Source: a virus (Duplodnaviria > Heunggongvirae > Uroviricota > Caudoviricetes). Taken from it: DNA of 12,422 nt. The stretch lies in IMG/VR virus record IMGVR_UViG_2619619131_000008, positions 1 through 12,422 of that record; one strand, 5' to 3'. The notes under the pieces are model-generated. The model did not search any database and was not told the DNA's origin. It saw only the letters and a program-made list of their open reading frames with translations. This document shows positions 313 to 12,422 of this stretch, piece after piece (positions within the stretch are counted from its first letter, which is position 1; the number at the start of each line of letters is the position of its first letter). The translations under genes and the position numbers were made by a program.

Positions 313-327
313 GTTGGAGTCATTACC
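1..327 (+). mobile_element. IS1 insertion sequence, 3' portion (5' part lies outside the window); right terminal inverted repeat ends at about 327
   Basis: Window starts inside a sequence I recognise as IS1 (…CTCCGGAAGACGGTTGTTGCGCACGTATTCGGTGAACGCACTATGGCGACG…). ORF translates to the InsB C-terminus (…HYLNIKHYQ). Characteristic IS1 end …CACTATCAATAAGTTGGAGTCATTACC at 301-327. Confidence 0.9.
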
Positions 328-392
328 TCCAAATCTGAATAATTAAGTTCAGCACTGTAAATAAAATTTAATCCTTAACTGGAGGTATATCT

Positions 393-605
393 ATGTCAAA
401 TACACAGAAAATTATTAACACTGAAAAATATAACGAGTGGGTGAAAAAATTCTCTGAACAGATTTTTAAAATTACTGGCGACGAGAATGTGGCAAAAAAT
501 GAATTAGAACCGTGGACACCTGAAGGAAACGCACCAAATTATTGCTGGTGGGAGGTTGATCCGGTTGATGCTGCAAATGAAGCCATGAGTTACCACAACG
601 ATTAA
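393..605 (+). CDS. hypothetical 70-aa protein (AT-rich moron gene)
   Basis: ATG at 393 preceded by GGAGG (381-385) at good spacing. Visibly AT-rich sequence immediately after the IS1 end. No recognisable family. Confidence 0.5.
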   Translation: MSNTQKIINTEKYNEWVKKFSEQIFKITGDENVAKNELEPWTPEGNAPNYCWWEVDPVDAANEAMSYHND

Positions 606-615
606 TGTCGGGAGG

Positions 616-631
616 CCGCCCGAAAGGGCGG
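616..631 (+). other. intergenic GNRA-tetraloop stem-loop (CCGCCC-GAAA-GGGCGG), not followed by a U-tract
   Basis: Perfect 6-bp GC-rich stem with GAAA loop between the stop at 605 and the ATG at 638. No downstream T-run, so it is not a canonical intrinsic terminator. Confidence 0.5.
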
Positions 632-637
632 TAAGAA

Positions 638-856
638 ATGACTACATTATTCAGAAAAGAATATCCGCAAAAAAGTAGAGCGACAGAATTTTTGTTTCTC
701 ATTCTGTTTATCGTATTGATGATACCGATATCCCCTCTAATTTTTGTCTGGGCAATCGGGAAAATAATTGAGCCAGTTACTGAATTGTATACCGACGTTG
801 TATGGGCGTCGTTCAACACACTGCACAATAAAATTAATCCGTATAAGGAAAACTGA
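638..856 (+). CDS. hypothetical small membrane protein (72 aa, one predicted TM helix: FLFLILFIVLMIPISPLIFVWAIG)
   Basis: ORF in the same AT-rich island with a long hydrophobic segment. Weak RBS. Stop TGA 854-856 is directly followed by the next start at 858. Confidence 0.45.
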   Translation: MTTLFRKEYPQKSRATEFLFLILFIVLMIPISPLIFVWAIGKIIEPVTELYTDVVWASFNTLHNKINPYKEN

Positions 857-857
857 T

Positions 858-1121
858 ATGGCAACTTTGACAAAAAAAGAACGGGCATGGTTGAACGAAT
901 TACAGGAAGTTCTTGATCGCTGTCCATCACCGAAAAAAATTGGCTTTTACACCATTGGCGATAAAAGCATTTACCTGTATGACCTACGTCGCATGGATGA
1001 AATCATGGAGGCTCTTGATAATCGTTCGTCGATGGATTGGTGTGTTGCTGTTCATGATATGAATGCAGGGTTTGATGAAAAGATTTTGTTCCCCTCATCA
1101 GTTGAAAGCACTGCGGGTTAA
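858..1121 (+). CDS. hypothetical phage protein (87 aa)
   Basis: ATG at 858 preceded by AAGGAAAA. The longer ORF-track form (768..1121) would overlap the upstream gene and was not used. No family recognised. Confidence 0.55.
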   Translation: MATLTKKERAWLNELQEVLDRCPSPKKIGFYTIGDKSIYLYDLRRMDEIMEALDNRSSMDWCVAVHDMNAGFDEKILFPSSVESTAG

Positions 1122-1131
1122 GGAGTAACAC

Positions 1132-1299
1132 ATGACCACTATTACCAAAGAACGTATTGAATTGTTCATTAAAAACCCGCTTGAAAACGGGCTTACCCGT
1201 GGTGAACAAATGGAACTGGCACGGATTGCGCTGGCATCGCTGGAAGCAGAGCCGGTTGTGTTCTGGTTTGAAAAATATCAAGAAGGGGCTACGGCATGA
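1132..1299 (+). CDS. hypothetical small protein (55 aa), paralogous to the next gene
   Basis: Absent from the ORF track (<60 aa). ATG at 1132 with AGGAG at 1121-1125. Translation [55 protein letters not shown]. Stop overlaps the next start (ATGA at 1296-1299). Confidence 0.5.
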
Positions 1300-1541
1300 C
1301 GACTTTTACCAGAGAGCAGTTAATAGCTCACGCAGAGGAGACTATTGAAGCACAGAGACTGTGCATACCGGGCACAATCGACCATGACATCATCCGCACA
1401 TATAAGATGGATATTGCTGTTCTGGAAATCGCACTGGTATCGCTGGCAGCAGAGCCAGCCGGTAAATTGCATGAATACAAACCAGTGGGATATCAGCGTC
1501 TGGTCGATGAGTTAACCATGCTGGTAAAGCAGTTAACCTAG
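1296..1541 (+). CDS. hypothetical small protein (81 aa), paralogous to the previous gene
   Basis: Starts MTTFTREQ… (compare MTTITKER…) and contains [10 protein letters not shown] (compare [10 protein letters not shown]). Translationally coupled to the upstream ORF. Confidence 0.55.
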
Positions 1542-1636
1542 CAACTGAGGAAAGCGAAGCCAGACTGCAAATTACCGGATAAGGCGATGAGTTATCTGGA
1601 GCGGAACGGACTGATAAGCGTGGAGGATATTTTACG

Positions 1637-1720
1637 ATGACCTGGCCTGAAGCATTAACAACGGTAGGAATTGCGATGGCGGTGGCGCTGGTGGTGTATT
1701 CGATTTGCCGCTGGGGATAA
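1637..1720 (+). CDS. possible 27-aa hydrophobic peptide (MTWPEALTTVGIAMAVALVVYSICRWG), coupled to a 17-aa upstream ORF (1587-1640)
   Basis: GGAGG at 1622-1626 precedes the ATG at 1637. ATGA overlap with the tiny upstream ORF. Single hydrophobic helix. Below ORF-track size; speculative. Confidence 0.25.
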   Translation: MTWPEALTTVGIAMAVALVVYSICRWG

Positions 1721-1889
1721 AAACGGTTTGCGGGAAAAGGAGAGTTAAGTAGAATTGCAGCGGGTGCTTGAGGCTATCTGTCTCAGGCATGAACACCAAA
1801 AGGCAGATAGAGAAAAGCCCCAGTTAACATTACGCGTCCGGCAAGACGCTTAACATTAATCTGAGGCCATATCTATGCTCTACACACGT

Positions 1890-1918
1890 AGGTTAGCCTC
1901 TTACGTGCCGAAAGGCAA
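1890..1918 (-). promoter_or_regulatory. candidate Sok-like antisense promoter (minus strand: TTGCCT - 17 bp - TAACCT) directing transcription across the upstream in-frame ATG of the hok ORF
   Basis: Hexamers read from the reverse complement. Position and orientation match the canonical hok/sok layout. Not verified. Confidence 0.3.
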
Positions 1919-1931
1919 GGAGAAGCAGGCT

Positions 1932-2087
1932 ATGAAGCAGCAAAAGGCGATGCTAATCGCCCTGATCGTCATCTGTTTAACCGTCATTGTGACGGCACTG
2001 GTAACGAGGAAAGACCTCTGCGAGGTACGAATCCGAACCGGCCAGACGGAGGTCGCTGTCTTCACAGCTTACGAACCTGAGGAGTAA
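1932..2087 (+). CDS. hokD: Hok/Gef family type I toxin (51 aa), HokD/RelF-like
   Basis: Translation MKQQKAMLIALIVICLTVIVTALVTRKDLCEVRIRTGQTEVAVFTAYEPEE matches the Hok family signature (TM helix, conserved Cys, C-terminal periplasmic tail). AAGGAG at 1916-1921. An in-frame upstream ATG at 1875 could give a 70-aa form. Confidence 0.85.
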   Translation: MKQQKAMLIALIVICLTVIVTALVTRKDLCEVRIRTGQTEVAVFTAYEPEE

Positions 2088-2155
2088 GAGACCTGGCGGG
2101 GGAGAAATCCCTCGCCACCTCTGATGTGTCAGGCATCCTCAACGCACCCGCACTT

Positions 2156-2182
2156 AACCCGCTTCGGCGGGTTTTGTTTTTT
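2156..2182 (+). terminator. rho-independent terminator downstream of hok (AACCCGC-TTCG-GCGGGTT followed by a T-run)
   Basis: GC stem-loop followed by TTTGTTTTTT, seen directly. Confidence 0.6.
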
Positions 2183-2254
2183 CCTGGCATTCTGGTTTAC
2201 AATTCGCACGTCAGCCTGAACACCTGACACCTGCTGCGCCAGCAGAGAAAACAG

Positions 2255-2527
2255 ATGGCGCACAAAACCAAATTTCACAATTCTGATACCGACCTTGCCA
2301 TCCGGCATGAGCGGCGTTCACACGCATTTAAAACCGACTGGTACCAACACCCACCATGTACTGAAGAACAGGCCGAATGGCTGATTCATTCTTACCGCAG
2401 GCGCGGGTTCGAGGTTAAGAAAGCTCTCAGCCTCGATTATCGTCACTGGATAATCTCCGTCAGGCTTCCTTACTCTGAACGCCCACCGCGTCCGTCCCGC
2501 ACATTCCAGCAACGCATCTGGAGGTAA
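2255..2527 (+). CDS. hypothetical protein (90 aa) in the position occupied by rem in the Qin prophage
   Basis: ORF between hokD and the ydfU-like gene. Weak RBS. Synteny only; the K-12 Rem sequence is not recalled well enough to confirm. Confidence 0.45.
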   Translation: MAHKTKFHNSDTDLAIRHERRSHAFKTDWYQHPPCTEEQAEWLIHSYRRRGFEVKKALSLDYRHWIISVRLPYSERPPRPSRTFQQRIWR

Positions 2528-2528
2528 C

Positions 2529-3578
2529 GTGCGGGTATTACTTCGACCTGTTCTGGTACCGGAACTCGGGCTGGTGATCGTTAAGCCGGGCCGTGAATCC
2601 ATGCCGGTATTCCACAATACCCGGGTACTGGTGGAGCCGGAACCGAAAAGCATGCGTAATCTGTCGTCCGGGGTCGTTCCTGCCGTTCGCCAGCCGCTGG
2701 CGGAGGATAAATCATTACTGCCATTTTTCAGCGACGAACGAGTGATTCGTGCTGCTGGTGGCGCTGGCGCATTGTCTGACTGGTTACTGCGCCATGTTAA
2801 ATCCTGCCAGTGGCCACACGGCGATTATCACCACAGTGAAACCGTCATTCACCGTTATGGTACCGGCGCAATGGTGTTGTGCTGGCACTGCGACAACCAG
2901 TTGCGTGACCAGACCTCCGAATCACTTGAGCAACTTGCTCACCAAAACCTGTCAGCATGGATGATTGACGTCATTCGTCACGCAATGAATGGCACACAGG
3001 AGCGTGAATTATCGCTGGCTGAATTATCCTGGTGGGCGGCCTGCAATCAGGTGGTGGATGCACTACCTGAGGCAGTAGCGCGTCGTTCGCTGGGATTACC
3101 AGCGGAAAAAATCCGCTCCGTATACCGTGAGAGTGACATCGTACCGGGAGAACAGACAGCCATCAGCATACTGAAGCAGCGCACAAAAAATATTGCGCTG
3201 CCACTTCACGTCCACCAGCAACAAAATCCACCACAGGAAAAGACGGTGGTCAGCATTGCCGTTGATCCGGAGTCTCCGGAATCCTTCATGAAACGACCTA
3301 AACGTCGCCGCTGGGTTAACGAGAAATACACGCGCTGGGTGAAGACACAGCCGTGTGCGTGTTGTGGTAAGCCAGCCGACGATCCCCATCACCTGATTGG
3401 TCATGGTCAGGGCGGAATGGGGACAAAATCTCACGATATTTTCACGCTACCGCTGTGTCGGGAGCATCACAACGAGCTTCATGCGGATCCGCTGGCGTTC
3501 GAAGAAAAGCATGGCTCTCAGGTTGATTTAATTTTTCGTTTTCTTGATCACGCCTTTGCAACCGGCGTGCTCGGGTAA
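2529..3578 (+). CDS. ydfU: DUF968/YdfU-family lambdoid prophage protein with C-terminal HNH-like zinc-binding motif (CACCGKPADDPHH … CREHHNELH)
   Basis: 349-aa ORF from GTG at 2529 (GGAGG at 2520-2524). Strong resemblance to recalled Qin YdfU (MRVLLRPVLVPELGL…). Synteny hokD-rem-ydfU-Q. Confidence 0.8.
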   Translation: MRVLLRPVLVPELGLVIVKPGRESMPVFHNTRVLVEPEPKSMRNLSSGVVPAVRQPLAEDKSLLPFFSDERVIRAAGGAGALSDWLLRHVKSCQWPHGDYHHSETVIHRYGTGAMVLCWHCDNQLRDQTSESLEQLAHQNLSAWMIDVIRHAMNGTQERELSLAELSWWAACNQVVDALPEAVARRSLGLPAEKIRSVYRESDIVPGEQTAISILKQRTKNIALPLHVHQQQNPPQEKTVVSIAVDPESPESFMKRPKRRRWVNEKYTRWVKTQPCACCGKPADDPHHLIGHGQGGMGTKSHDIFTLPLCREHHNELHADPLAFEEKHGSQVDLIFRFLDHAFATGVLG

Positions 3579-3590
3579 AAGAGGTTACTG

Positions 3591-3965
3591 ATGCGTATAG
3601 AGTTTGTTTTGCCTTACCCGCCGACGGTGAACACCTACTGGCGACGTCGTGGCAGCACATATTTTGTATCAAAAGCCGGTGAGCGTTATCGCCGGGCTGT
3701 GGCGCTTATTGTTCGCCAGCAGCGGCTGAAATTAAGCCTGTCCGGAAGGCTGGCGATAAAGATTATTGCCGCGCCACCGGATAAGCGCCGCCGTGACCTG
3801 GACAATATTCTGAAAGCGCCGCTGGATGCGCTGACGCATGCGGGGTTGCTAATGGACGATGAGCAGTTTGATGAAATCAATATCGTTCGTGCTCAGCCAG
3901 TATCTGGTGGACGTCTGGGGGTGAAGATTTACCCCATAATGCTTGCAGGGCAGGTCAAAAAATGA
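3591..3965 (+). CDS. rusA: RusA-family Holliday junction resolvase
   Basis: 124 aa. RusA-like motifs (YPPTVNTYW near the N-terminus, RRRDLDN acidic catalytic motif). AAGAGG RBS. Typical nin-region position just upstream of Q. Confidence 0.85.
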   Translation: MRIEFVLPYPPTVNTYWRRRGSTYFVSKAGERYRRAVALIVRQQRLKLSLSGRLAIKIIAAPPDKRRRDLDNILKAPLDALTHAGLLMDDEQFDEINIVRAQPVSGGRLGVKIYPIMLAGQVKK

Positions 3966-4783
3966 AACTGGAAGATTTACCGAAATACTACTCCCCAAAA
4001 TCCCCCGGCCTGACTGATGCATCGGCCTCAACGTCGAAAGATGCGCTGAGTATCACTGATGTGATGGCCGCGCAGGGCATGACACAGAATCGGGCTGAGA
4101 TGGGGTTTTCTGCGTTCCTTGGTAAAATGGGCATTAGTATGAATGACAGAGAGCGGGCAACAGAATTGCTGACAGAATATGCACTCAGTCGGTGTGATCG
4201 CGTGGCGGCGTTAAGAAAACTCCCGGCAGAAATAAAACCGGTAGTGATGCGCATTATGGCTTCGTACGCTTTTGAGGATTATGCCCGTAGCGCAGCGAGT
4301 AAAAAACAGTGCCCCTGCTGTCACGGAAAAAAATTTATTGAAAGCGAGGTTTTTACAAACAAGATCCAGTATCCGGATGGTAAGCCGCCGGTATGGGCAA
4401 AGTGTACGAAAGGTGTGTATCCGTCTTACTGGGAAGAATGGAAAAAAGTCAGGGAGGTGGTAAAAGTTGCCTGTCCGGAGTGTGGCGGAAAGGGTGAGGT
4501 TTCCACCGCCTGTAAGGATTGCCGTGGGCGTGGTGTCGCCATTCATCGTGAAGAGTCGGTAAAACGTGGTATGCCTGTTATCAGAGACTGCCAGCGTTGT
4601 GGTGGTCGTGGCTGTGAAAGACTACCATCAACGGAGGCATTTAATGCCATATGCAAAGTGACGAGTGCTATCACGCTTGATACGTGGAAAAAATCAGTGA
4701 AACGCTTTTACGATACGTTGGTGGTTCGGTTTGACATTGAAGAGGCATGGGCGGAGCGGCAGTTAAAGAGGGTAACGCGATAG
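3962..4783 (+). CDS. putative late-gene antiterminator (Q-like, QuuQ/YdfT-like) with four DnaJ-type CxxCxGxG zinc-finger repeats
   Basis: 273-aa ORF coupled to rusA (ATGA overlap). Sits immediately upstream of a lambda-like pR' promoter and tR' terminator. Contains CPCCHGKK, CPECGGKG, CKDCRGRG, CQRCGGRG. Assignment rests on synteny and recalled Qin organisation. Confidence 0.6.
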   Translation: MKLEDLPKYYSPKSPGLTDASASTSKDALSITDVMAAQGMTQNRAEMGFSAFLGKMGISMNDRERATELLTEYALSRCDRVAALRKLPAEIKPVVMRIMASYAFEDYARSAASKKQCPCCHGKKFIESEVFTNKIQYPDGKPPVWAKCTKGVYPSYWEEWKKVREVVKVACPECGGKGEVSTACKDCRGRGVAIHREESVKRGMPVIRDCQRCGGRGCERLPSTEAFNAICKVTSAITLDTWKKSVKRFYDTLVVRFDIEEAWAERQLKRVTR

Positions 4784-4788
4784 TGTTG

Positions 4789-4828
4789 TTGATTTTTCCC
4801 GAATCTGTGGTAAATTCGCTCTAACGAT
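4789..4828 (+). promoter_or_regulatory. pR'-like late promoter (-35 TTGATT, extended -10 TGgTAAATT) with downstream AACGAT pause-like element (putative Q engagement region)
   Basis: The -10 hexamer TAAATT and the downstream …AACGATGGG… closely resemble the lambda pR' region as recalled. Located 6 bp after the Q-like stop. Confidence 0.6.
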
Positions 4829-4865
4829 GGGCGTTTTATGCCTGACGTTAGAAGATTTTTTACAC

Positions 4866-4887
4866 CCCGCCGCCTGGCGGGTTTTTT
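4866..4887 (+). terminator. tR'-like intrinsic terminator (CCCGCC-GCCT-GGCGGG + TTTTTT)
   Basis: Perfect 6-bp GC stem followed by a T6 run about 45-65 nt downstream of the pR' start region; would yield a short 6S-like leader RNA. Confidence 0.7.
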
Positions 4888-5009
4888 ATGACTGAAATCG
4901 CGTCAGTACAGTAAACGCGCTGGTGGCGGTGAATACCTGTCTTTCAGCTTGCTGGCTTTTTCGACAAGAGTTATTGGTGTGTCACGTTAACCGGAAAAGG
5001 GAAAAAGAC

Positions 5010-5207
5010 ATGCTAAAACAGCAGGATATGACAGAAACCGCCAGAGTAGTGTTTAATGAATTAAGCGTTACCGAACCGGCGACAGTCGGGGAGATTGCAC
5101 AGAATACTTACCTTTCACGCGAACGCTGCCAGTTAATACTGACCCAGCTGGTTATGGCGGGTCTGGCAGACTATCAGTGCGGTTGTTACAGACGCCTTCA
5201 GTCCTGA
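5010..5207 (+). CDS. hypothetical 65-aa protein, possibly a small helix-turn-helix DNA-binding protein
   Basis: ATG at 5010 preceded by AAAAGGGAAAAAG. Segment TVGEIAQNTYLSRERCQLILTQLVMAGL resembles an HTH. Start chosen over the longer 4923 form. Confidence 0.45.
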   Translation: MLKQQDMTETARVVFNELSVTEPATVGEIAQNTYLSRERCQLILTQLVMAGLADYQCGCYRRLQS

Positions 5208-5220
5208 AGGCTTTTTATTT
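5193..5220 (+). terminator. rho-independent terminator (GCCTTCAG…CTGAAGGC + TTTTTATTT) overlapping the stop of the 65-aa gene
   Basis: Near-perfect 8-bp inverted repeat followed by a T-rich run. Confidence 0.5.
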
Positions 5221-5274
5221 GTGGTGAATGGGCGGCTGGTGGGGGGCGACACCTGTCAGTCCTTTGCTTATGTG

Positions 5275-5305
5275 TTGATGATAATTTACCTTTTGGGGCT
5301 ATAAT
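5275..5305 (+). promoter_or_regulatory. candidate sigma70 promoter for the AraC-family gene (-35 TTGATG, -10 TATAAT)
   Basis: Consensus TATAAT at 5300-5305. The -35 spacing is slightly long (about 19 bp), so uncertain. Confidence 0.35.
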
Positions 5306-5340
5306 TGAGCTAACCAATTGCTAATGAAAGTAAAATTATA

Positions 5341-6054
5341 ATGGCTGTTGTCTGTTCAGTTATCATGGTTTGCTCCCCAATTAATATTTTTCTTGAAAAG
5401 GATACGTTGTCACTTAAGCCAGGCTCAGTTGTTCTGGCCACCAAATGCATCAGGGAGCTTTTCCTTATGCATTATGGCAAAGTTAAAATTGTCGATATAA
5501 GCGAATCCGTCGTAAGTCAATATCTGGAAAGTCAGCATAAGCTGACGAGGACTCGTCTGACTGACATTCCGCTTTACCTGTTGCTGGAACCCAACAATCC
5601 TGCGTTGGCTGCGGCTTTAATTACCAGCCAGGGATTTTCCGGAGAGGCCACGGATATGTTTCTTATGATGGCCTGCCTGTCTCTGTTTGAAACAGATGAA
5701 CGGATGTCATTGTTTTTAAGTGGATGTTTATCCAGCATAAGTGCCAAAGTCAGGGCGATAATTCAGACAGATATATCAGCAAGCTGGACGCTTTGTGCGA
5801 TTGCTCTACAGTTGCATATGAGTGAGAGTTTGTTAAAGACAAAACTGAAAAATGAAGGGGGCATGTTCAGTCGCTTGTTGCTGGAAGAGCGGATGCGTGT
5901 TGCTGTAAATATGTTATGTTCCCGGCATGGATATGGACAGGCTATAGCAGAAAAATGCGGTTATTCAAGCAGGTCCTACTTTATTTCTGTATTTCACCGC
6001 TATTATGGCTTCCCGCCAGACAGATATGTATCCAGGCAAGGGCTTGATTATTGA
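5341..6054 (+). CDS. AraC/XylS-family transcriptional regulator (prophage-encoded, AppY/Psr/PatE-like class)
   Basis: 237 aa. C-terminal double-HTH signature of the AraC family (…AIAEKCGYSSRSYFISVFHRYYGFPPDRY…). N-terminus MAVVCSV… resembles prophage AppY-type regulators as recalled. Visibly AT-rich gene and upstream region. Alternative downstream starts are possible. Confidence 0.8.
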   Translation: MAVVCSVIMVCSPINIFLEKDTLSLKPGSVVLATKCIRELFLMHYGKVKIVDISESVVSQYLESQHKLTRTRLTDIPLYLLLEPNNPALAAALITSQGFSGEATDMFLMMACLSLFETDERMSLFLSGCLSSISAKVRAIIQTDISASWTLCAIALQLHMSESLLKTKLKNEGGMFSRLLLEERMRVAVNMLCSRHGYGQAIAEKCGYSSRSYFISVFHRYYGFPPDRYVSRQGLDY

Positions 6055-6082
6055 TTTTCATCTGATTATTATTTTTTGGCTC

Positions 6083-6158
6083 GGCCCTTTAGCTCAGTGG
6101 TGAGAGCGAGCGACTCATAATCGCCAGGTCGCTGGTTCAAATCCAGCAAGGGCCACCA
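6083..6158 (+). tRNA. ileZ: tRNA-Ile2 (anticodon CAU, lysidine-type; ileZ/ileX-like), with encoded CCA
   Basis: Cloverleaf readable by eye: GGCCCTT acceptor, D arm GCTCAGTGGTGAGAGC, anticodon loop CTCATAA, T arm GGTTCAAATCC, 3' CCA. Very similar to recalled E. coli ileX. Anticodon alone would also fit Met. Confidence 0.85.
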
Positions 6159-6165
6159 TCACATA

Positions 6166-6239
6166 CCGCCATTAGCTCATCAGGAAAGAGCGCCAGCCTT
6201 CGAAGCTGGTTGCGCGGAGTTCGGATCCCCGAAGGCGGT
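6166..6239 (+). tRNA. argN: tRNA-Arg-like (anticodon read as UCG; argN-like), with non-canonical stem pairs
   Basis: Acceptor CCGCCAT/AAGGCGG (one A-A mismatch), D arm GCTC…GAGC, anticodon stem-loop CCAGC-CTTCGAA-GCTGG, T arm CGGAG-TTCGGAT-CCCCG (one A-C mismatch). 3' end is TCA rather than CCA. Confidence 0.55.
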
Positions 6240-6255
6240 TCATTATCTGTATCCT

Positions 6256-6332
6256 GCGTTGTTAGCTCAGCCGGACAGAGCAATTGCCTTCTAAGCAATC
6301 GGTCACTGGTTCGAATCCAGTACAACGCGCCA
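6256..6332 (+). tRNA. argO: tRNA-Arg (anticodon UCU; argO/argU-like), with encoded CCA
   Basis: Acceptor GCGTTGT/ACAACGC, D arm GCTCAGCCGGACAGAGC, anticodon loop CTTCTAA, T arm CTGGTTCGAATCCAG, discriminator G + CCA. Confidence 0.85.
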
Positions 6333-6346
6333 GACTTATTTTTCCC

Positions 6347-6370
6347 GGCTCGCTTTTGCGGGCCTTTTTT
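6347..6370 (+). terminator. rho-independent terminator after the tRNA cluster (GGCTCGC-TTTT-GCGGGCC + TTTTTT)
   Basis: 7-bp stem with one G-U pair followed by a T6 run. Confidence 0.55.
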
Positions 6371-6502
6371 GTATCCGCGCCACGCCCGGCGCATATCAAC
6401 CACAGAGCCTTTCGGGGGTGAGCTTACGGAGTGGTCAGTGTGACTTTCTCTGTGGGCAGATCGCTCCCGGGCGTTGGCTCACCCACCCAAAGGAACGTCA
6501 CG

Positions 6503-6934
6503 ATGTTTGGTATTTTTGGTAAAAAAGCCCGCCGAGCGGCAGTGGAAATTAAAAAGTTTGAGAAACGTGATCTGGCACAGGCGGTTATTAATGCTGCCTA
6601 TCTGGTGGCCTATGCAGATGGTGAATGTGAGGCTTCAGAGAAAGCGAAGATCGAGCAGGTCTTGCGTAACCAGCCTGCGTTGTCCGCGTTTACGTCAGAA
6701 ATTAATGCGATTAGCGCAACCATTATCGGTCAGCTGGATACGAACTTTAAAATTGGTCGTCGAGCGGCGTTACGTGAGATCGAGGATGTGAAACACGATA
6801 CGCGTGAAGCGGAAGACGTGCTGGATGTGGCGGTGGCCATTGCCGAAGCAGACGGCGAAATAGAGCCGGAAGAGCGCAAGGTGCTGGAAGAGATTGCCGG
6901 TGTTCTGGGCCTTCGTCTGGAGAATCATCTGTGA
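6503..6934 (+). CDS. TerB-like domain protein (tellurite-resistance TerB / DjlA-N-like fold), 143 aa
   Basis: ATG at 6503 with AAGGAA 7 nt upstream. Two TerB-type acidic motifs (AYADGECEASEKAKIEQVL and AEADGEIEPEERKVLEEIAGVLGL). The earlier GTG at 6431 lacks an RBS. Confidence 0.65.
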   Translation: MFGIFGKKARRAAVEIKKFEKRDLAQAVINAAYLVAYADGECEASEKAKIEQVLRNQPALSAFTSEINAISATIIGQLDTNFKIGRRAALREIEDVKHDTREAEDVLDVAVAIAEADGEIEPEERKVLEEIAGVLGLRLENHL

Positions 6935-6942
6935 CGGTAAAA

Positions 6943-7104
6943 ATGCGTCTGGCTGTGGTTGCGCTCCTGCTGTTTCTGGTAGTGATGGTGGTGATGGTGG
7001 ACTTCAGCAGCCGGATAATGTCAGTGCTGGCTGACGGTGTGCTGGTGGCGGGTGTGGTGGTTGTTGCTTTCCCGTTGCTGAAAAAGAAAGCATCAGGCGA
7101 TTAG
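6943..7104 (+). CDS. possible small hydrophobic membrane peptide (53 aa: MRLAVVALLLFLVVMVVMVDFSSRIMSVLADGVLVAGVVVVAFPLLKKKASGD)
   Basis: Absent from the ORF track (<60 aa). Starts 9 nt after the TerB-like stop. Two hydrophobic segments and a KKK tail. Weak RBS; contains a 9-bp tandem repeat GTGATGGTG x2. Confidence 0.35.
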   Translation: MRLAVVALLLFLVVMVVMVDFSSRIMSVLADGVLVAGVVVVAFPLLKKKASGD

Positions 7105-7344
7105 CAGGGTATCAGTTACCCGTTGAAATTTTTAAATACCTCACAATTCAGGCGGTTGACTGTTGTCTGGTTTGCGGGGAGTTTGTTAAAAGAAACTGGC
7201 ATGGTGAATCCCCCTGTGCGGAGGGGCAATCAGCAACTGGTGTTTTGTCACCGACCCTTATCCTTTCTGTGCGGGTTCAGGTGCTGATACTGAACTCACC
7301 GGGAGGCACCCGGCACCATGCAAAATTGTCTACACTACCACTGT

Positions 7345-7373
7345 AAAAAGCCCCTCTCCGGAGGGGCTTTTCT
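7345..7373 (+). terminator. strong intrinsic terminator (AGCCCCTC-TCCG-GAGGGGCT + TTTCT), A-run upstream makes it potentially bidirectional
   Basis: Perfect 8-bp GC-rich stem with tetraloop, flanked by AAAAA and TTTT. Confidence 0.65.
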
Positions 7374-7378
7374 ATGGG

Positions 7379-7407
7379 CAAAAAAAAGCCCGCAGTGAGT
7401 GGCGGGC
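7379..7407 (-). terminator. intrinsic terminator oriented for the minus strand (GCCCGC…GCGGGC preceded on + by A8, i.e. followed by U8 on minus-strand RNA)
   Basis: 6-bp GC stem with 8-nt loop. The poly-A on the + strand corresponds to poly-U on a leftward transcript. Confidence 0.45.
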
Positions 7408-7471
7408 GGGGCGCATGAATATACATCAGGTATTTTTATTATCGTGTTCTGATTTTTACCATCTGTGATAA

Positions 7472-7502
7472 GGCTGCGCAACTGCGCGGCCTTTTTCGTT
7501 TT
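7472..7502 (+). terminator. intrinsic terminator (GGCTGCGC-AACT-GCGCGGCC + TTTTTCGTTTT)
   Basis: 8-bp stem with one G-U pair followed by a T-rich run, about 90 bp upstream of the nanS-p-like start. Confidence 0.55.
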
Positions 7503-7590
7503 GCGGGCTGCGGTTCTCCTCTTTTGATTCTCCGTGTAGCCGGACCGTGGCCCGCAACTGTTGAGGAAAATCCCGGAAAGGGGAGGAATA

Positions 7591-9534
7591 ATGGCATTTA
7601 AACACTATGACGTGGTCAGGGCGGCGTCGCCGTCAGACCTTGCGGAGCGACTGACACAAAAACTGAAGGAAGGCTGGCAGCCGTTTGGCAGTCCTGTGGC
7701 TATCACGCCTTATACACTGATGCAGGCCATTGCCGCAGAGGGTGATGTGACCACGCCTGTGGTTGTGCCCGACACAGGGGCTGGTGGCTCTCCGGGAGTG
7801 GCTACCACTGAACCGGAGTATTACTACGTTATTCCCCTGGCCGGGCAGTCGAACGGTATGGCCTATGGTGAGGGGCTTCCTCTGCCGGAGACCTATGATC
7901 GCCCTGACTCCCGTATTAAGCAGCTGGCCCGTCGCAGCACTGTGACGCCGGGTGGTGATACCTGTGCATACAATGACGTTATTCCGGCAGACCACTGTCT
8001 GCATGATGTTCAGGACATGAGCGCACTTAACCATCCTCATGCAGACCTGAGTAAGGGCCAGTACGGGACTGTCGGTCAGGGGCTGCATATTGCCAAAAAA
8101 CTTCTGCCTTATATCCCGCAGAATGCCGGGATTCTTCTGGTGCCCTGTTGCCGTGGCGGGTCTGGTTTAACCGTGGGTAATGACGGCACGTTCAGCGAAA
8201 CGTCTGGCGCATCGGCAAATTCAGCCCGCTGGGGAGTGGGTAAACCGCTGTATCAGGATTTTCTCTTCCGTACAAAAGCGGCGCTGTCGAAGAACCCGAA
8301 AAACAGGCTTCTGGCCGTGGTATGGATGCAGGGGGAAAATGATCTTGCGGACGGCAGTCAGCAGCACAGCGGCCTGTTTACCACTATGGTGCAGCAGTTC
8401 AGGGCTGATATGGCTGCATATTCTGCACAGTGTGTTGGCGGAAGTGCTGGCTCGGTGCCGTGGATTTGTGGTGACACCACGTATTACTGGAAGAATCTTA
8501 ACGCCGATAAATATGAGGCGGTATATGGCGGTTACAAGGGCAGGGAAGCACAGAATATTTTCTTTGTACCGTTCCTGACGGATGAGAATGGACAGAGCAC
8601 GCCAACGAATGCTCCGGCGGAAGACCCGGATATTGTGGCTGTCGGGTATTACGGTGCAGCATCCCGAACCCAGGGCAGTTTTGTTTCGACACAGCGTGAC
8701 AGCCATTTCAGCTCATGGGCACGCAGGGGCGTCATTTCAGACCGTCTGGCCTCAGCTATTATGCTCCATGCAGGGCGCACGGCTGAATTGATGCGCGGGC
8801 AGACCGTGACACCACCGGATGAGAAGCCGTCACCTGATACACCATCAAAACCGTCCACGCCACCCGCAGACACCACGACGATGAGTACGCTATTTGCTTA
8901 CCGGGCATCTGAGTCTGAAGGACGGTTGACACCACAGGGTTGGGCTGCTGGAGGTGGCAAGGCTCAAATCGTGGATGATGCCGGAGCCAGCGGGGGTAAG
9001 GCAATGAAACTGACCAAGGAAACAGGAAGAGCCCCCTGGTACCTTGAGCATGATGCTGGTAATGGTGCGGACCTGCTGGGTAAAGGTGGTCTTGTCAGTT
9101 GTCGTTTTAAACTCGATGGCGCGCTTACGGCTAATCAGTACGCACTGGCGCTGTACTGGCCGGTTTCTTCATTGCCTCAGGGTGTCACACTGGAAGGTAA
9201 TGCCGGTAACAATCTGCTGGCGTCGTTTTACGTACAGAGCGATGCCACAGACCTCAACGTGATGTACCACAAGGGTAACGCTGACCAGAACACGAAGCTG
9301 GGGTCATTCGGCGCATTTAATAACGAATGGCATACGCTGGGCTTCCGTTTTGCCGGTAATAACAGTATTCAGGTGACGCCGGTGATTGATGGTCAGGATG
9401 GTGCACCGTTCATGCTGTCGCAGTCTCCGGTAGGTTCTTTTGCGGCAGACAAATTACGTGTAACGGATATCACAAAAGCGGCGACGTATACGGTGCTGAT
9501 TGAAAGTATAACAGTGGAAGTGAATAACCCGTAA
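7591..9534 (+). CDS. nanS: NanS-p-like prophage 9-O-acetyl sialic acid esterase (N-terminal DUF1737, SGNH/SASA esterase core with GQSN motif, C-terminal beta-rich domain)
   Basis: 647 aa from ATG 7591 (AAGGGGAGGA RBS). N-terminus MAFKHYDVVRAASPSDLAERL… is DUF1737-like. IPLAGQSNGMAYGEG carries the SGNH catalytic Ser block. Pro/Ser/Thr-rich linker (TPPDEKPSPDTPSKPSTPP). Same position as yjhS/nanS-p downstream of the toxin site in Stx phages. Confidence 0.8.
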   Translation: MAFKHYDVVRAASPSDLAERLTQKLKEGWQPFGSPVAITPYTLMQAIAAEGDVTTPVVVPDTGAGGSPGVATTEPEYYYVIPLAGQSNGMAYGEGLPLPETYDRPDSRIKQLARRSTVTPGGDTCAYNDVIPADHCLHDVQDMSALNHPHADLSKGQYGTVGQGLHIAKKLLPYIPQNAGILLVPCCRGGSGLTVGNDGTFSETSGASANSARWGVGKPLYQDFLFRTKAALSKNPKNRLLAVVWMQGENDLADGSQQHSGLFTTMVQQFRADMAAYSAQCVGGSAGSVPWICGDTTYYWKNLNADKYEAVYGGYKGREAQNIFFVPFLTDENGQSTPTNAPAEDPDIVAVGYYGAASRTQGSFVSTQRDSHFSSWARRGVISDRLASAIMLHAGRTAELMRGQTVTPPDEKPSPDTPSKPSTPPADTTTMSTLFAYRASESEGRLTPQGWAAGGGKAQIVDDAGASGGKAMKLTKETGRAPWYLEHDAGNGADLLGKGGLVSCRFKLDGALTANQYALALYWPVSSLPQGVTLEGNAGNNLLASFYVQSDATDLNVMYHKGNADQNTKLGSFGAFNNEWHTLGFRFAGNNSIQVTPVIDGQDGAPFMLSQSPVGSFAADKLRVTDITKAATYTVLIESITVEVNNP

Positions 9535-9682
9535 GCAGGAAAAAAAGACCGCCGTGGCAGGGAAAACAAGGAGCCAGAACCGGCGGCAGAAGTCGCTACA
9601 TCCTTAGCAAAAATATGCTGAGCAAAAAATGCAGGAGTTTTTTACTGGCAGGCATTGACCATGTCAATAATGGAGATGAATA

Positions 9683-9865
9683 ATGACATTTTTACAGCTG
9701 ATTATGTTGTATTTCTGTACAGCAGTTTGTGTGCTGTATCTTCTTTCTGGTGGGTACAGAGTCGTGAGAGATTTCTGGCGCAGGCAGATTGACAAAAGGG
9801 CCGCTGAGAAAATCAGTGCCAGTCAGTCAGCCGGAACAAAACCCGAAGAGCCTCTCATTCCGTAG
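9683..9865 (+). CDS. hypothetical small membrane protein (60 aa)
   Basis: ATG with GGAG upstream. N-terminal hydrophobic helix (LQLIMLYFCTAVCVLYLLSGG). Confidence 0.45.
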   Translation: MTFLQLIMLYFCTAVCVLYLLSGGYRVVRDFWRRQIDKRAAEKISASQSAGTKPEEPLIP

Positions 9866-9902
9866 CAACTTTCTTAACAACACCTTTCAACGAGAAAATA
9901 CC

Positions 9903-10172
9903 ATGTCAGAAATAAAATCGCTGGTCACTGCTGAAGCAGTGAAGGAAGTCCTGCGCTCTGAAGAAGTCAGAAGCGCACTGAAACAGCAACTTCGGCAGAA
10001 CCTTGAGGCGCGTCTTGATGCAGAAGTGGATGCCATTCTGGATGAACTGCTGGGCGCACCGACTGTTCCGGAGCCGGAAGGCATTGCGGATGACAGTGCT
10101 GTTTCAGATGGCGTCGGGTCTCAGCCTGATGGTAGCAGTGAGCCTCAGCCTGACGGCGAAATGATGATGTAA
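9903..10172 (+). CDS. hypothetical acidic protein (89 aa) with C-terminal low-complexity SQPDG/EPQPDG repeat
   Basis: ATG at 9903 chosen over the upstream in-frame ATG (9789), which would overlap the previous gene. Helical N-terminal part and acidic tail. Confidence 0.5.
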   Translation: MSEIKSLVTAEAVKEVLRSEEVRSALKQQLRQNLEARLDAEVDAILDELLGAPTVPEPEGIADDSAVSDGVGSQPDGSSEPQPDGEMMM

Positions 10173-10247
10173 CCATGCGCAGGGGCTGTCGGTGTGAGCT
10201 GATGCCCCTCTTGTTGTTGTGAGCTTCCGGATTGCGGGAGACGGGGT

Positions 10248-10463
10248 ATGTACCAGATGGAAAAAATCACAACAGGTGTGTCATACACCACGTCAGCGGT
10301 GGGGACGGGCTACTGGTTCCTGCAGCTGCTGGACAGGGTTTCCCCGTCTCAGTGGGCGGCAATAGGCGTACTGGGAAGTCTGCTGTTTGGGCTGCTGACA
10401 TATCTGACTAACCTGTATTTCAAAATCAGAGAGGACCGTCGTAAGGCGGCGCGGGGAGAGTAA
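10248..10463 (+). CDS. S: class II holin, phage 21 S-type pinholin (71 aa) with possible dual-start motif (Met1/Met4)
   Basis: [71 protein letters not shown] is near-identical in the C-terminal two thirds to recalled S21. Two TMDs and a charged C-tail. Confidence 0.85.
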
Positions 10464-10467
10464 AGCG

Positions 10468-10812
10468 ATGAAGAAAAAATACGAACTGGTTGTTAAAGGG
10501 ATAAATAATTACCCGAATAAGATTACTGTTACTGTGGCACTGGAAATTGGTGGGTATCCGTCACTGTTGTTGCCAGATGTGGCGATTAGTCTTGACCGTA
10601 CTGAAGATGCCACGCTGGAGTTTTACGAAGCTGAGGCGAAAAAGCAGGCGAAGCAGTTTTTCATGGATGTTGCTGCCGGGTTATGTGAAGGGGATGGTCC
10701 GTTGCCGGAAAAGCGCCCCGTAATTTTAGAGGCGCAGGATGTGTTGATAACCTACAGAGGAAAACTACCGGGAATAATTACTGGTTCTCTGAAGACTCCA
10801 CCGCTGGCCTGA
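10468..10812 (+). CDS. hypothetical 114-aa protein inserted between pinholin and endolysin genes
   Basis: ATG at 10468 with GGAGAG RBS, 4 nt after the holin stop. No TM segment or family recognised. Confidence 0.55.
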   Translation: MKKKYELVVKGINNYPNKITVTVALEIGGYPSLLLPDVAISLDRTEDATLEFYEAEAKKQAKQFFMDVAAGLCEGDGPLPEKRPVILEAQDVLITYRGKLPGIITGSLKTPPLA

Positions 10813-10862
10813 AGACTTAACATATCCAGGGATTTGAAATCGATAAACCCTGATAAATATCC

Positions 10863-11396
10863 ATGAACACCAAAATCAAATACGGCCTGTCGGCTGCCGT
10901 TCTGGCGCTGATTGCCGCAGGTGCGCCTGCGCCTGAAATCCTCGACCAGTTTCTGGATGAAAAGGAAGGTAACCACACCACGGCATACCGTGATGGCGCG
11001 GGTATCTGGACCATCTGCCGCGGTGCCATCCTGGTGGATAGTAAACCTGTCGTCCCGGGCATGAAGTTGTCGAAGGAAAAATGCGACCAGGTCAACGCCA
11101 TTGAGCGTGATAAGGCGCTGGCATGGGTGGAGCGCAATATTAAAGTGCCGCTGACCGAACCCCAGAAAGCGGGTATCGCGTCATTTTGTCCCTATAACAT
11201 TGGCCCCGGTAAGTGTTTCCCGTCGACGTTTTACAGACGGATTAATGCTGGTGACCGCAGGGGAGCATGCGAAGCGATTCGCTGGTGGATTAAGGACGGT
11301 GGCAGAGACTGCCGTATCCGCTCAAATAATTGCTACGGTCAGGTATCCCGGCGAGACCAGGAAAGTGCGCTGGCGTGCTGGGACATCGACAGATAA
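10863..11396 (+). CDS. R: SAR endolysin (T4-lysozyme-like muramidase, R21 type) with N-terminal signal-anchor-release domain
   Basis: 177 aa. N-terminal weakly hydrophobic Gly/Ala-rich segment (GLSAAVLALIAAGAPAP). Catalytic E-x8-D-x5-T pattern (E…NHTTAYRD…GIWT). Expected partner of a pinholin. Confidence 0.8.
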   Translation: MNTKIKYGLSAAVLALIAAGAPAPEILDQFLDEKEGNHTTAYRDGAGIWTICRGAILVDSKPVVPGMKLSKEKCDQVNAIERDKALAWVERNIKVPLTEPQKAGIASFCPYNIGPGKCFPSTFYRRINAGDRRGACEAIRWWIKDGGRDCRIRSNNCYGQVSRRDQESALACWDIDR

Positions 11397-11486
11397 GCAG
11401 AATATTTTGCTGAAAAATAAGGCATGAGCACGCGGACGGATAACACGAAATCCTGCGAACTGGCGAAACGTAAGTGAATAAAAGTA

Positions 11487-11526
11487 AAAACCCCGTTTGT
11501 TGGCACCAAGCGGGGTTTTGTGTTTC
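11487..11526 (+). terminator. intrinsic terminator downstream of the endolysin gene (CCCCGTTTG…CAAGCGGGG + TTTTGTGTTT), A-run upstream
   Basis: 9-bp stem with one G-U pair and 7-nt loop followed by a T-rich run. Confidence 0.5.
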
Positions 11527-11552
11527 TGACCTTGAGTAAGGCAAGGGAGAAC

Positions 11553-11735
11553 ATGGCGAAGTATAAACGAATTCTGTTGAGGTTGACCATGAAAAACGGC
11601 CTTGAACTGAAAGCGCCTGTAACTGATGACATCAGCAGAGCACTGGCTTTTGCCATTAAGTGGGTGGCGGTCGGTGTTGCTGTGTCCCCGATGCTGTATG
11701 GGCTGGCAAAACTGGTCATTGCGTTGAAATCGTGA
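11553..11735 (+). CDS. hypothetical small protein (60 aa) with C-terminal hydrophobic helix
   Basis: ATG at 11553 with AAGGGAGA upstream (short spacing). Hydrophobic segment [22 protein letters not shown]. Function unknown. Confidence 0.35.
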
Positions 11736-11749
11736 AGGGAGGATTAAGC

Positions 11750-11881
11750 ATGTCAGACAAACTCATAACGCTGGCGAAGATCCTCTGTGTAATTGTCGGC
11801 ATTTCATTTTCACTAATGCTGGTTGCTCTTTTTCTTTCCATGGCCTGGATGATGTTGTCTTCGTCGGGGCTGCTGGGGTGA
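11750..11881 (+). CDS. hypothetical small membrane peptide (43 aa)
   Basis: Strong RBS GAAGGGAGG before ATG 11750. One TM helix ([26 protein letters not shown]). Stop overlaps the Rz start. Confidence 0.35.
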
Positions 11882-12351
11882 ACATAAACCGAATGCTTTC
11901 CGCGTTTACCGTTATTCTGCTGGTGGTCTGTGGTGCGCTGTGGCTGGCAACAGACCATTACCGTGATAACGCCATCACCTACAAAGCGCAGCGCGATAAA
12001 AAAGCCAGAGAGCTGGAGCTGGCAAACGCAACCATTACTGACATGCAGCAGCGCCAGCGTGATGTTGCTGCGCTTGATGCCAGATACTCAAGGGAATTAG
12101 CCGATGCGAGAGCTGAAAATGAAACTCTGCGTGCTGATGTTGCCGCTGGTCGTAAGCGCCTGCGGATCAACGCCACCTGCTCCGGTACCGTGCGTGAAGC
12201 CACCGGCACCTCCGGAATGGATAATGCAACCGGCCCCCGACTGGCAGACACCGCTGAACGGGATTATTTCACCCTCAGAGAGCGGTTGATGACAATGCAG
12301 AAGCAACTGGAAGGGGCGCAGGAATATATCCGCACTCAGTGTATTAACTAG
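11878..12351 (+). CDS. Rz: Rz i-spanin (inner-membrane spanin subunit)
   Basis: Strong similarity to recalled lambda Rz (…[15 protein letters not shown]…[17 protein letters not shown]…TMQKQLEG…). N-terminal TM helix. Start may be GTG 11878 or ATG 11893. Confidence 0.85.
12104..12289 (+). CDS. Rz1: Rz1 o-spanin lipoprotein, embedded in the +1 frame inside Rz
   Basis: [61 protein letters not shown]: lipobox VVSAC, Pro-rich, very similar to recalled lambda Rz1. Confidence 0.85.
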
Positions 12352-12374
12352 TATTTTTGTTATCCGGAGAATGC

Positions 12375-12422
12375 ATGAAGAAATTACTGGTAACCGTAAA
12401 GCCTTTTCAGGGAACAATTCCG
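12375..12422 (+). CDS. start of an ORF running off the window (MKKLLVTVKPFQGTIP…), unidentified
   Basis: GGAGA RBS before ATG 12375. Only 16 codons visible. Confidence 0.2.
   Translation, partial: MKKLLVTVKPFQGTIP

Follow-up and report, generated by a model that had tools for sequence, protein, structure and literature searches.

A tciA-tciB cassette in the stx position of a lambdoid prophage is preceded by a conserved, probably structured leader RNA

The DNA analysed here, called the window throughout, is the stretch of 12,422 nucleotides (nt) formed by positions 1 to 12,422 of the IMG/VR virus record IMGVR_UViG_2619619131_000008 (Caudoviricetes), and it covers the part of a lambdoid prophage that holds the late regulatory genes and the lysis genes. 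Three features on the + strand concern us: a leader of about 125 nt (6377–6502), the gene tciA (6503–6934, ATG start, 143 amino acids), which encodes a TerB protein, and the gene tciB (6931–7104, GTG start, 57 amino acids), which encodes a DUF3927 protein. The gene pair is a named phage cassette, already known and widely annotated. The leader is apparently a new, previously undescribed element; it lies inside the coordinates of a preliminary description of this locus, made from the sequence alone, but was not noticed there.

The tciA open reading frame (ORF) matched the Pfam TerB family PF05099 with 59.8 bits against a cut-off of 24.4 (E=3.9e-16; residues 26–138 aligned to profile positions 2–109 of 118), and phrog_632, labelled 'tellurite resistance', covered its product from residue 1 to residue 143 of 143 (E=3e-69). 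A profile of 36 TciA homologues matched KP-TerB (2JXU) over residues 13–137 (E=2.8e-14). The AlphaFold2 model of TciA (pLDDT, the predicted local distance difference test, 86.3) has six helices, and its best Foldseek matches in the PDB were the TerB-like structures 2h5n and 2ou3 (probability 1.00 and 0.89), with moderate template modelling (TM) scores (0.42–0.61) and E>=0.013. The hidden Markov model (HMM) search and the structure prediction proposed for 6503–6934 in the preliminary description therefore gave both a TerB family match and a TerB-like fold, and the 143-residue TerB-like protein announced there was recovered with its two ADGE motifs, at residues 38–41 and 116–119. These acidic motifs, A38-D39-G40...E46 and A116-D117-G118...E124, are invariant or nearly so in the 36 homologues; they are the ADG-x5-E pair of the TerB family, a putative metal-binding motif present twice in TciA. 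No hydrophobic segment was found in the protein (maximum 19-residue hydropathy 1.0). TciA is a soluble cytoplasmic single-domain TerB protein.

The small ORF matched Pfam DUF3927 (PF13064) with 71.2 bits against a cut-off of 25, and phrog_1470 ('TciB-like') with E=1.6e-18. DUF3927 is a small family: a search of 1.84 billion representatives gave only 40 clusters (50% identity level) with E<=1e-3. The hydropathy profile of TciB comprises two hydrophobic segments (residues 6–23 and 29–49) and both ends are basic, in agreement with the hydrophobic membrane peptide of the preliminary description; the conserved motif is VDF(S/T)x(R/K)..S..ADG......WP..K, and no holin-family HMM matched TciB in Pfam and PHROG scans. 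The limits of the peptide had to be revised. It had been described as 53 residues long, starting 9 nt after the TerB ORF (ATG 6943) and ending in KKK; its C-terminus is KKKASGD, and its start is most probably GTG 6931, which gives 57 residues and a GTGA overlap of 4 nt with the tciA stop. This start is preferred because the NCBI Prokaryotic Genome Annotation Pipeline (PGAP) calls the identical RefSeq locus in that way, because an N-terminal xxK(x)R then falls into register with the homologues of P1, P7 and N4-like phages, in which the start likewise overlaps the TerB stop, and because the equivalent of ATG 6943 is CTG in the prophage PPyecE_EH1910. An in-frame 9-nt tandem duplication inside tciB (GTGATGGTG twice, at about 6985–7002) lengthens the first hydrophobic segment, the protein having 57 amino acids here compared with 54 in Escherichia phage JLK-2012 and in most homologues.

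The names tciA and tciB date from the annotation of the phage P1 genome, where the tci genes were named 'by homology' only. JLK-2012 carries the same DNA at 98% identity, annotated tciA/tciB; PPyecE_EH1910, a prophage of Shiga toxin-producing Escherichia coli (STEC), is annotated 'TciA/TerB-like protein'; and the PGAP label is 'tellurite resistance TerB family protein | DUF3927 family protein'. Of 5,426 complete E. coli genomes, 790 (~15%) contained 80% or more of the query, at up to 8 places per genome. The pair had been put forward as an undescribed system, a proposal that these names, annotations and frequencies, together with the Pfam and PHROGs families, do not allow. In P1, a CRISPR interference screen classified tciA, tciB and tciC as non-essential (PMC10695390), and the P1 tci genes are mentioned in some transcriptome descriptions. 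A 2026 preprint on Pas small RNAs (sRNAs) cites TerB among the typical neighbours of PasA/PasC in prophages of this kind.

TerB homologues of about 143 amino acids were found in 131 phage records, and 19 diverse TerB neighbourhoods were retrieved for comparison. TciB detection used a locally built HMM based on 13 TciB sequences; tblastn of TciB against the phage records gave no match, probably owing to low-complexity filtering of the hydrophobic query. Over all loci compared, TciB lay directly downstream at 102 of 111 TerB hits, a count dominated by near-identical E. coli prophages, so that the independent evidence amounts to roughly ten lineages. Conversely, a look-up starting from DUF3927 proteins placed TerB upstream with a 4-nt overlap in 7 of 7 cases. 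Comparative genomics in both directions thus supports conservation of the pair as a unit. The gene junctions are GTGA, TGATG or TAATG across 13 lineages, with either the 4-nt overlap of the window or a 1-nt overlap in 11 of them and a 3-nt gap in jumbo phages. A TciB-type ORF abuts or overlaps the TerB stop in P1, P7, D6, Fostie, a Klebsiella prophage and Pantoea phage LIET2, as well as in the virulent jumbo phages (Machinavirus) pSal-SNUABM-04 and ChrisDB and in the N4-like Salmonella phage UTK0002; in Pseudomonas phage ZY21 a TciB-like ORF follows TerB, unannotated. The pair co-travels across a range of 33% to 100% TciA identity, in temperate and in virulent phages. Apparent TerB-DUF3927 fusions (P0127, P0185 and P0260) were considered as Rosetta-stone support and set aside, their junctions looking like frameshifts, chimeras or assembly artefacts.

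Several arrangements of the cassette were noted in the course of these comparisons. In lambdoid, P1-like and jumbo phages tciA follows a tRNA array at a distance of 146–170 nt, or of about 765 nt where an additional insert is present, although the arrays are unrelated in identity (Ile2-Arg-Arg, Asn-Thr-Gly, Asn-Thr-Ser, Trp-Cys). In 'Candidatus Pantoea communis' (L107, 1897–5085) four TerB-like ORFs stand in tandem, the first with the leader, and no TciB was detected. At two loci (L085, 354–463, and L306, 8909–8996) tciA is broken after its third codon (ATGTTTG|TAAGCG...), presumably by insertion of a mobile element; in L085 the remainder of TerB is found about 2.6 kb downstream.

The non-coding stretch from the terminator that follows the tRNA genes to the tciA ATG is conserved in prophages of E. 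coli, Pantoea, Pseudescherichia, Franconibacter, 'Enterobacter' pulveris and Buttiauxella, and also in virulent jumbo phages. Identity to the window is 63–84% in this leader, compared with 32–50% at four-fold synonymous sites of tciA; in Fostie, TciA is 43% identical in protein and the leader 82% identical. A coding cause of this conservation was considered, as some gene callers extend tciA to a 167-amino-acid product from GTG 6431 (e.g. P0125); it was rejected on the basis of 1-nt indels among close relatives and of the covariation pattern described below. A protein scan of genome contigs gave only 9 loci, and pattern scans of IMG/VR and of the Joint Genome Institute (JGI) metagenomes gave 47 unique leader versions, the metagenome pattern scan being mostly noise (87 of 96 unique matches spurious). 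Among 72 unique pattern matches in IMG/VR plus the local set, 66 lay directly before TerB; the other six comprised four spurious matches, one contig end and one tciA disrupted by an insertion sequence (IS). The single true exception is a metagenome contig (L315, 1225–1822), in which Q and the leader are followed by a signal-peptide-bearing, TAXI/NMT1-like periplasmic binding protein, 74% identical to the product of the gene after tciAB in jumbo phage pSal-SNUABM-04 (L009, 2233–3027).

The leader is present in 771–779 complete E. coli genomes (about 14%), many of them enterohaemorrhagic E. coli (EHEC), with a median of 3 copies, and no RNA feature is annotated at the leader in any of these genomes. 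A covariance model, R1, scored 119.9 bits on 6396–6505, its sole match in the window, and detected no copy of the leader in P1/P7/D6, N4-like, Klebsiella, Pantoea LIET2, Pseudomonas, Vibrio or Shiga toxin (Stx) phages. Rfam 15 gave no match beyond noise in 6320–6530 at E<=10, and no family reached its gathering score on the leader, whether in the window or at 11 related loci; no published description of the leader turned up in a literature search.

A nested fold of the leader was derived from per-sequence minimum free energy (MFE) folds and manual comparison, followed by pair counting. Its outermost helix, S, pairs an anti-Shine-Dalgarno (anti-SD) element, CCUUU (6408–6412), with the Shine-Dalgarno (SD) sequence AAAGG (6489–6493); inside it, helix B pairs 6416–6424 with 6476–6484 and helix C pairs 6428–6438 with 6457–6467, with a conserved internal loop on the 3' side (6468–6475). 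S, B and C make up a single long hairpin, the MFE fold of most lineages, in which the ribosome-binding site would be hidden. Upstream of it stands hairpin H0 (6377–6392, + strand; GCGCC, loop ACGCCC, GGCGC). Two further helices are long-range and cross the long hairpin: helix A, which crosses B and C, pairs CCACAGAG (6400–6407) with CUCUGUGG (6448–6455) in the apical loop, and helix K pairs CGCCC of the H0 loop (6383–6387) with GGGCG (6469–6473) in the internal loop between C and B. A and C may form a compact pseudoknot or represent alternative states.

Changes among lineages respect most of these pairings. The H0 stem shows double changes at all 5 pairs (UCUGUC:GACAGA or CACAUC:GAUGUG in jumbo phages), and helix K covaries (CGCUC:GAGCG, UGCCCA:UGGGCA, GUGCC:GGCAC). 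In helix A, which RNAalifold recovered on the MAFFT alignment together with only a doubtful inner hairpin, 95.8–98.2% of cells are paired, with compensatory AU to GC changes in 3 sequences and CG to UA changes in 2; jumbo phages have CCGUAGAG:CUCUACGG at this place, and in Buttiauxella the helix reads CCGCAGAG:(G)UCUGCGG. Double changes occur at 4 pairs of helix C, which is formed by unrelated sequences in different lineages, for example GAGAAAA:UUUUCUC in L154. Helix S is 94–98% paired and its pairs are nearly invariant. Pairs were counted over 18 sequences and 43 pairs on a MAFFT alignment that had not been fitted to the structure: 91.8% of cells pair, compared with 39–51% when the partners are slid; both sides change at 14 of the 43 pairs, compared with 7.9±1.7 in shuffles, none of 500 of which reached 14; and the covariation score is 0.228, compared with 0.133 (0 of 500 shuffles). 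An earlier test with 21 sequences, from which H0 and K were left out, gave the same picture.

Some observations weigh against a selected structure. The 'further pair types' measure was not significant (49 of 500 shuffles), the shuffle z-score of the whole leader was only -2.0, and the MFE fold of the window's own leader is an alternative pairing of similar energy (-43.6 kcal/mol). Because the anti-SD:SD pairs hardly vary, helix S is supported by conservation and not by covariation. Taken together, these results indicate that the leader probably does form an RNA structure that is under selection. We also considered whether the internal loop between B and C is a K-turn or box C/D element and dismissed this, as the GUGAUGG...CUGA motif is lineage-specific, absent from the window and not next to the helix, where a K-turn would need it.

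The cassette sits where Stx phages carry their toxin genes. Compared with Stx2 phages, the window is similar through the tRNA genes and the post-tRNA terminator (GGCTCGC...GCGGGCC-T6) to about 6398, and similarity resumes about 30 nt past the tciB stop (~7137), in an STnc100-like region. Between the same flanks, stx2A-stx2B are found in the Stx2k phage phiSTEC1575 and in the Stx2a phage Stx2_95; Stx2_95 and PPyecE_EH1910 share one backbone, the former carrying stx2AB and the latter tciAB. The placement of the TerB pair in the exact stx slot, proposed in the preliminary description, is therefore correct, and it is also readable directly from existing prophage annotations. On the left, the slot is bordered by an intrinsic-terminator-like hairpin (GGCTCGC...GCGGGCC) with a T run (6347–6370, + strand), invariant in Stx2k, Stx2a_95, JLK-2012 and PPyecE. 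On the right lies an STnc100 (PasD-like) sRNA region with terminators (7170–7379, + strand; Rfam RF02076, 145.6 bits), which we take as the border because an STnc100-like element follows stx2B in the Stx2a phage L004 and tciB in L001 and L005. The covariance model found no leader in the Stx phages L003 and L004. Prophages with tciAB are the counterparts of Stx phages that lack stx at this position of the backbone, and they are useful for interpreting stx gain and loss in STEC genomics. A hairpin within the STnc100 region downstream of tciB (CACCGGGAGGCACCCGGCACC, about 7297–7320 in the window) recurs ~60–90 nt upstream of tciA in P1 (L006), P7 (L007) and D6 (L008).

At the 7 places found from DUF3927, the upstream flank of the pair varies (N6/N4 methylase, a ParE-helix-turn-helix (HTH) toxin-antitoxin, type I restriction-modification (RM), tRNAs or Q) and the downstream flank is either the holin directly or an esterase. 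In other E. coli prophages (L350–L355) an N6/N4 DNA methylase, a ParE-HTH pair or the type I RM genes hsdM/hsdS stand just upstream of the cassette; such neighbours suggest that the Q-to-holin interval is a general hotspot for defence and virulence cargo.

The other features of the window are as follows. At its left edge is the C-terminal fragment of an IS1-type transposase (46–312), followed by a hok/sok-type toxin-antitoxin at 1762–2087, where sok (1762–1937; Rfam, 117 bits) overlaps a Hok-like ORF of 70 amino acids (1875–2087). Upstream of tciA-tciB come a DUF968 gene (2529–3578), a RusA gene (3591–3965) and the antiterminator gene Q (3962–4783, PF03589 match). Just downstream of Q, a promoter was read from the sequence (4786–4814, + strand; TTGATT-17-TAAATT, followed by an AACGAT pause-like element), which we take to be like lambda pR', and a scan for terminator-like sites gave tR' (4866–4887, + strand; stem 4866–4881 plus a T run). 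Between tR' and the tRNA genes are a small TrmB-like ORF (about 5010–5207) and an AraC-family regulator gene (5341–6054; YdeO/GadX-like, phrog_1450) with its own promoter-like site (5278–5305). The block formed by these two (4923–6054) has a 91%-identical counterpart in the Stx2k phage OQ243220. A promoter scan placed a promoter-like site at 6044–6072, before the tRNA triad. The triad, examined with ARAGORN and Rfam, consists, on the + strand, of tRNA(CAT) (6083–6158; Met by ARAGORN, Ile by PGAP in the identical RefSeq locus), tRNA-Arg(TCG) (6165–6241) and tRNA-Arg(TCT) (6256–6332). Downstream of the cargo slot come a nanS-p-like esterase gene (SASA/DUF1737/DUF6645, 7561–9534), a class II holin gene (10248–10463), a lysozyme gene (10863–11396) and Rz/Rz1 (Rz 11878–12351). 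The order Q, pR'/tR', tRNA triad, cargo, nanS-p, S/R/Rz given in the preliminary description is thus correct, each element lying where it had been placed, and that description had left out the AraC-like gene and the TrmB-like ORF. The promoter scan found no consensus promoter between the terminator at 6347–6370 and tciA.

We hold, with moderate confidence, that tciA-tciB is a mobile cargo cassette that travels with its own leader in the 'moron' slot between Q and the lysis genes and acts as a membrane TerB module of the lytic phase. The cassette would be transcribed mainly after induction, by Q-modified, terminator-resistant RNA polymerase. Its position downstream of pR'/tR', and the lack of a consensus promoter of its own, fit the induction-coupled expression that had been proposed as one possibility. 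The leader might then switch between an SD-sequestered and an open state on some cue, gating tciA translation, with tciB being translated by coupling to tciA. TciB would tether or partner TciA at the inner membrane, as a split version of membrane-anchored TerB proteins, and the complex could survey or protect the membrane during lytic development. Possible roles would include excluding superinfecting phage or colicin damage, or countering membrane-acting defences of the host, and would not include tellurite resistance. A lytic-phase role is suggested by the presence of the pair in virulent phages and, in P1, of homologous genes in the C1-repressed ban operon. A role in sensing or protecting the membrane is suggested by analogy: the inhibition of phages and resistance to colicins are among the phenotypes historically ascribed to Ter (PMC9603915), and TerB domains occur in defence systems that have been validated, namely Shango, Bunzi and Dionysus, the last of which combines a TerB-like protein with a pore-forming transmembrane protein, TerB being a proposed amphitropic membrane sensor (bioRxiv 10.1101/2025.09.30.679545; PMC10250203).

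Several points weigh against this proposal. A literature search gave no functional experiment on TciA/TciB beyond non-essentiality in P1. A physical interaction of TciA with TciB is suggested by translational coupling and co-occurrence only, and Pseudomonas phages PMBT3 and AF and Vibrio phage K481 carry TerB without TciB. PADLOC-DB v2 gave no significant match (for TciA only PDC-S48 over 35 residues, E=0.0032; for TciB none). Finally, the promoter-like site at 6044–6072, combined with leaky termination, could give some expression in lysogens.

This last point bears on a lysogenic-conversion defence, in which tciAB would be expressed from the resident prophage, either by transcription that starts at the tRNA promoter and passes the terminator or from a promoter that escaped recognition, and would protect the lysogen against other phages or colicins, with TerB as the sensor and the small transmembrane protein as the effector, as in Dionysus-type systems. 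The Ter phenotypes and the TerB defence systems cited above, one of them with a membrane pore partner, are compatible with such a role, as are the RM, toxin-antitoxin and methylase genes adjoining the cassette in its cargo hotspot and the retention of 3–6 copies in EHEC genomes. We nevertheless consider it unlikely: tciA has a strong terminator immediately before it, with no consensus promoter in between, PADLOC gives no match, the locus encodes no helicase, ATPase or pore-forming-toxin domain as a partner and TciB has only 57 residues, and the pair is found with its leader in strictly virulent jumbo phages, and the pair also in N4-like phages, where there is no lysogen to protect. The carriage by virulent phages and the terminator immediately upstream likewise weaken the lysogen-protective half of the function first suggested for this locus, which had been offered alongside the induction-coupled one. 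A part in lysis timing or membrane energetics appears very unlikely. TciB, with two transmembrane segments, holin-like size and charged intramembrane residues, would in that case modulate holin triggering or the proton-motive force together with TciA; in size and topology it does resemble class II holins and pinholins, its transcription belongs to the late operon, and the cassette is immediately upstream of holin-endolysin genes in Fostie, in the Actinobacillus/E. coli-like pPE4 and in L350–L353. However, P1, N4-like and jumbo phages have the pair far from lysis genes, in early or tRNA regions, the proximity in lambdoid phages is explained by a shared cargo slot that also receives stx, RM and toxin-antitoxin genes, and holin-family HMMs do not match. 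Least probable of all, and in our opinion hardly credible, is a tellurite or colicin resistance determinant in which TciA, alone or with TciB, raises host tellurite resistance. The full-length homology of TciA to ter-operon TerB and the label 'tellurite resistance', used by PHROGs, by PGAP and in numerous phage records, speak for it, but no terZ, A, C, D or E was found in the window or in ~30 annotated cassette neighbourhoods, the P1 names were given by homology only, the gene belongs to a late or lytic-phase transcription unit, and the authors of the PMBT3 study expect no resistance from terB without other Tel-R genes (PMC8421299).

What the leader does can be read in two ways. It is conceivable, though rather doubtful, that it belongs to a new class of signal-responsive switch, an ion or metabolite riboswitch or a sensor of a trans-acting factor, that gates TerB-TciB translation in temperate as well as virulent enterobacterial phages. 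The reading that it is static, as a 5' structure that stabilises the mRNA cut from a precursor containing tRNAs, a binding site for some protein (CsrA, for instance) or a conserved recombination border of the cassette, is a serious possibility to which we give something short of even chances. In keeping with a static role, the leader always starts ~10 nt past a terminator or tRNA genes, whose processing leaves a monophosphorylated 5' end, GGA motifs are present in the leader and in the SD, no ligand is known, and the element serves one gene family with one exception. On the other hand, a border or any role at the DNA level leaves the base-pair covariation in six helices unexplained, a protective hairpin needs neither ~125 nt nor two crossing pairings, a conserved internal loop and an anti-SD, and the element recurs before a different gene in L315. 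If the leader does sense a ligand, that ligand would point to a physiological signal tied to TerB, and identifying the cue would offer a first direct approach to the signals that TerB modules respond to. To our knowledge, TerB-domain proteins have had no mechanistic explanation for decades. As a minimal natural TerB module, made of one soluble domain and one 57-residue membrane peptide and carried by genetically tractable phages, tciA-tciB is a good system for working out TerB function.

The closest relative of the cassette is tciABC of P1, where the TerB protein is 41% identical to TciA and the next gene, whose start overlaps, encodes a DUF3927 peptide with the TciB motif VDF(T/S)..S.L(A/S)DG..V...WP..K; there too the genes adjoin phage tRNA genes, and they are not essential for lytic growth. 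Unlike P1, neither the window nor the other lambdoid versions have a tciC homologue downstream of tciB, and the genes belong to a Q-dependent late operon here and to the C1-controlled ban operon in P1. P1, P7 and D6 also lack the leader and have the STnc100-like hairpin upstream instead. With stxAB and other morons between Q and S, tciAB shares the insertion site, both flanks, dependence on read-through from pR' under Q and a similar ribosome-binding-site context, but its cargo is unrelated to the toxin and it brings a long structured leader. Riboswitches of the SAM-II and preQ1-II types act on translation by hiding the SD inside a pseudoknotted fold. The leader resembles them in its size of 100–130 nt, its covarying helices and crossing pairings, its conserved internal loop and its predicted anti-SD:SD pairing before the start codon; it differs from known riboswitches in having no Rfam match, in being confined to phages and prophages of Enterobacterales and in standing almost always before one gene family.

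At the protein level, TciA shares with the TerB of ter operons (KP-TerB, 2JXU) a single all-helical domain of ~150 residues with the second acidic ADG...E motif conserved. In contrast to terZABCDE(F), tciA is carried by phages, its transcription falls in the lytic phase, its partner is a DUF3927 peptide, and no Ter partners such as TerC, TerD or TerZ are nearby. Shango (SngA), Bunzi (BnzA) and Dionysus (DinB with the pore-forming DinC) similarly combine a TerB-type domain with membrane-embedded partners; however, TciA is not a member of these families at the HMM level, no helicase, ATPase, MAEBL or pore-forming-toxin gene accompanies it, and those systems reside in host defence islands whereas tciAB is encoded by phages, including virulent ones. 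The N-terminal region of DjlA and YebE/DUF533 also have a TerB-like domain held at the inner membrane, and TciA shows similarity to both that is below the curated cut-offs and does not amount to membership (NCBIfam DjlA 28.9 bits, Pfam DUF533 23.6 bits). In DjlA and YebE the transmembrane segment and the TerB domain are on one polypeptide, to which DjlA adds a J domain, whereas in tciAB they are provided by two coupled genes.

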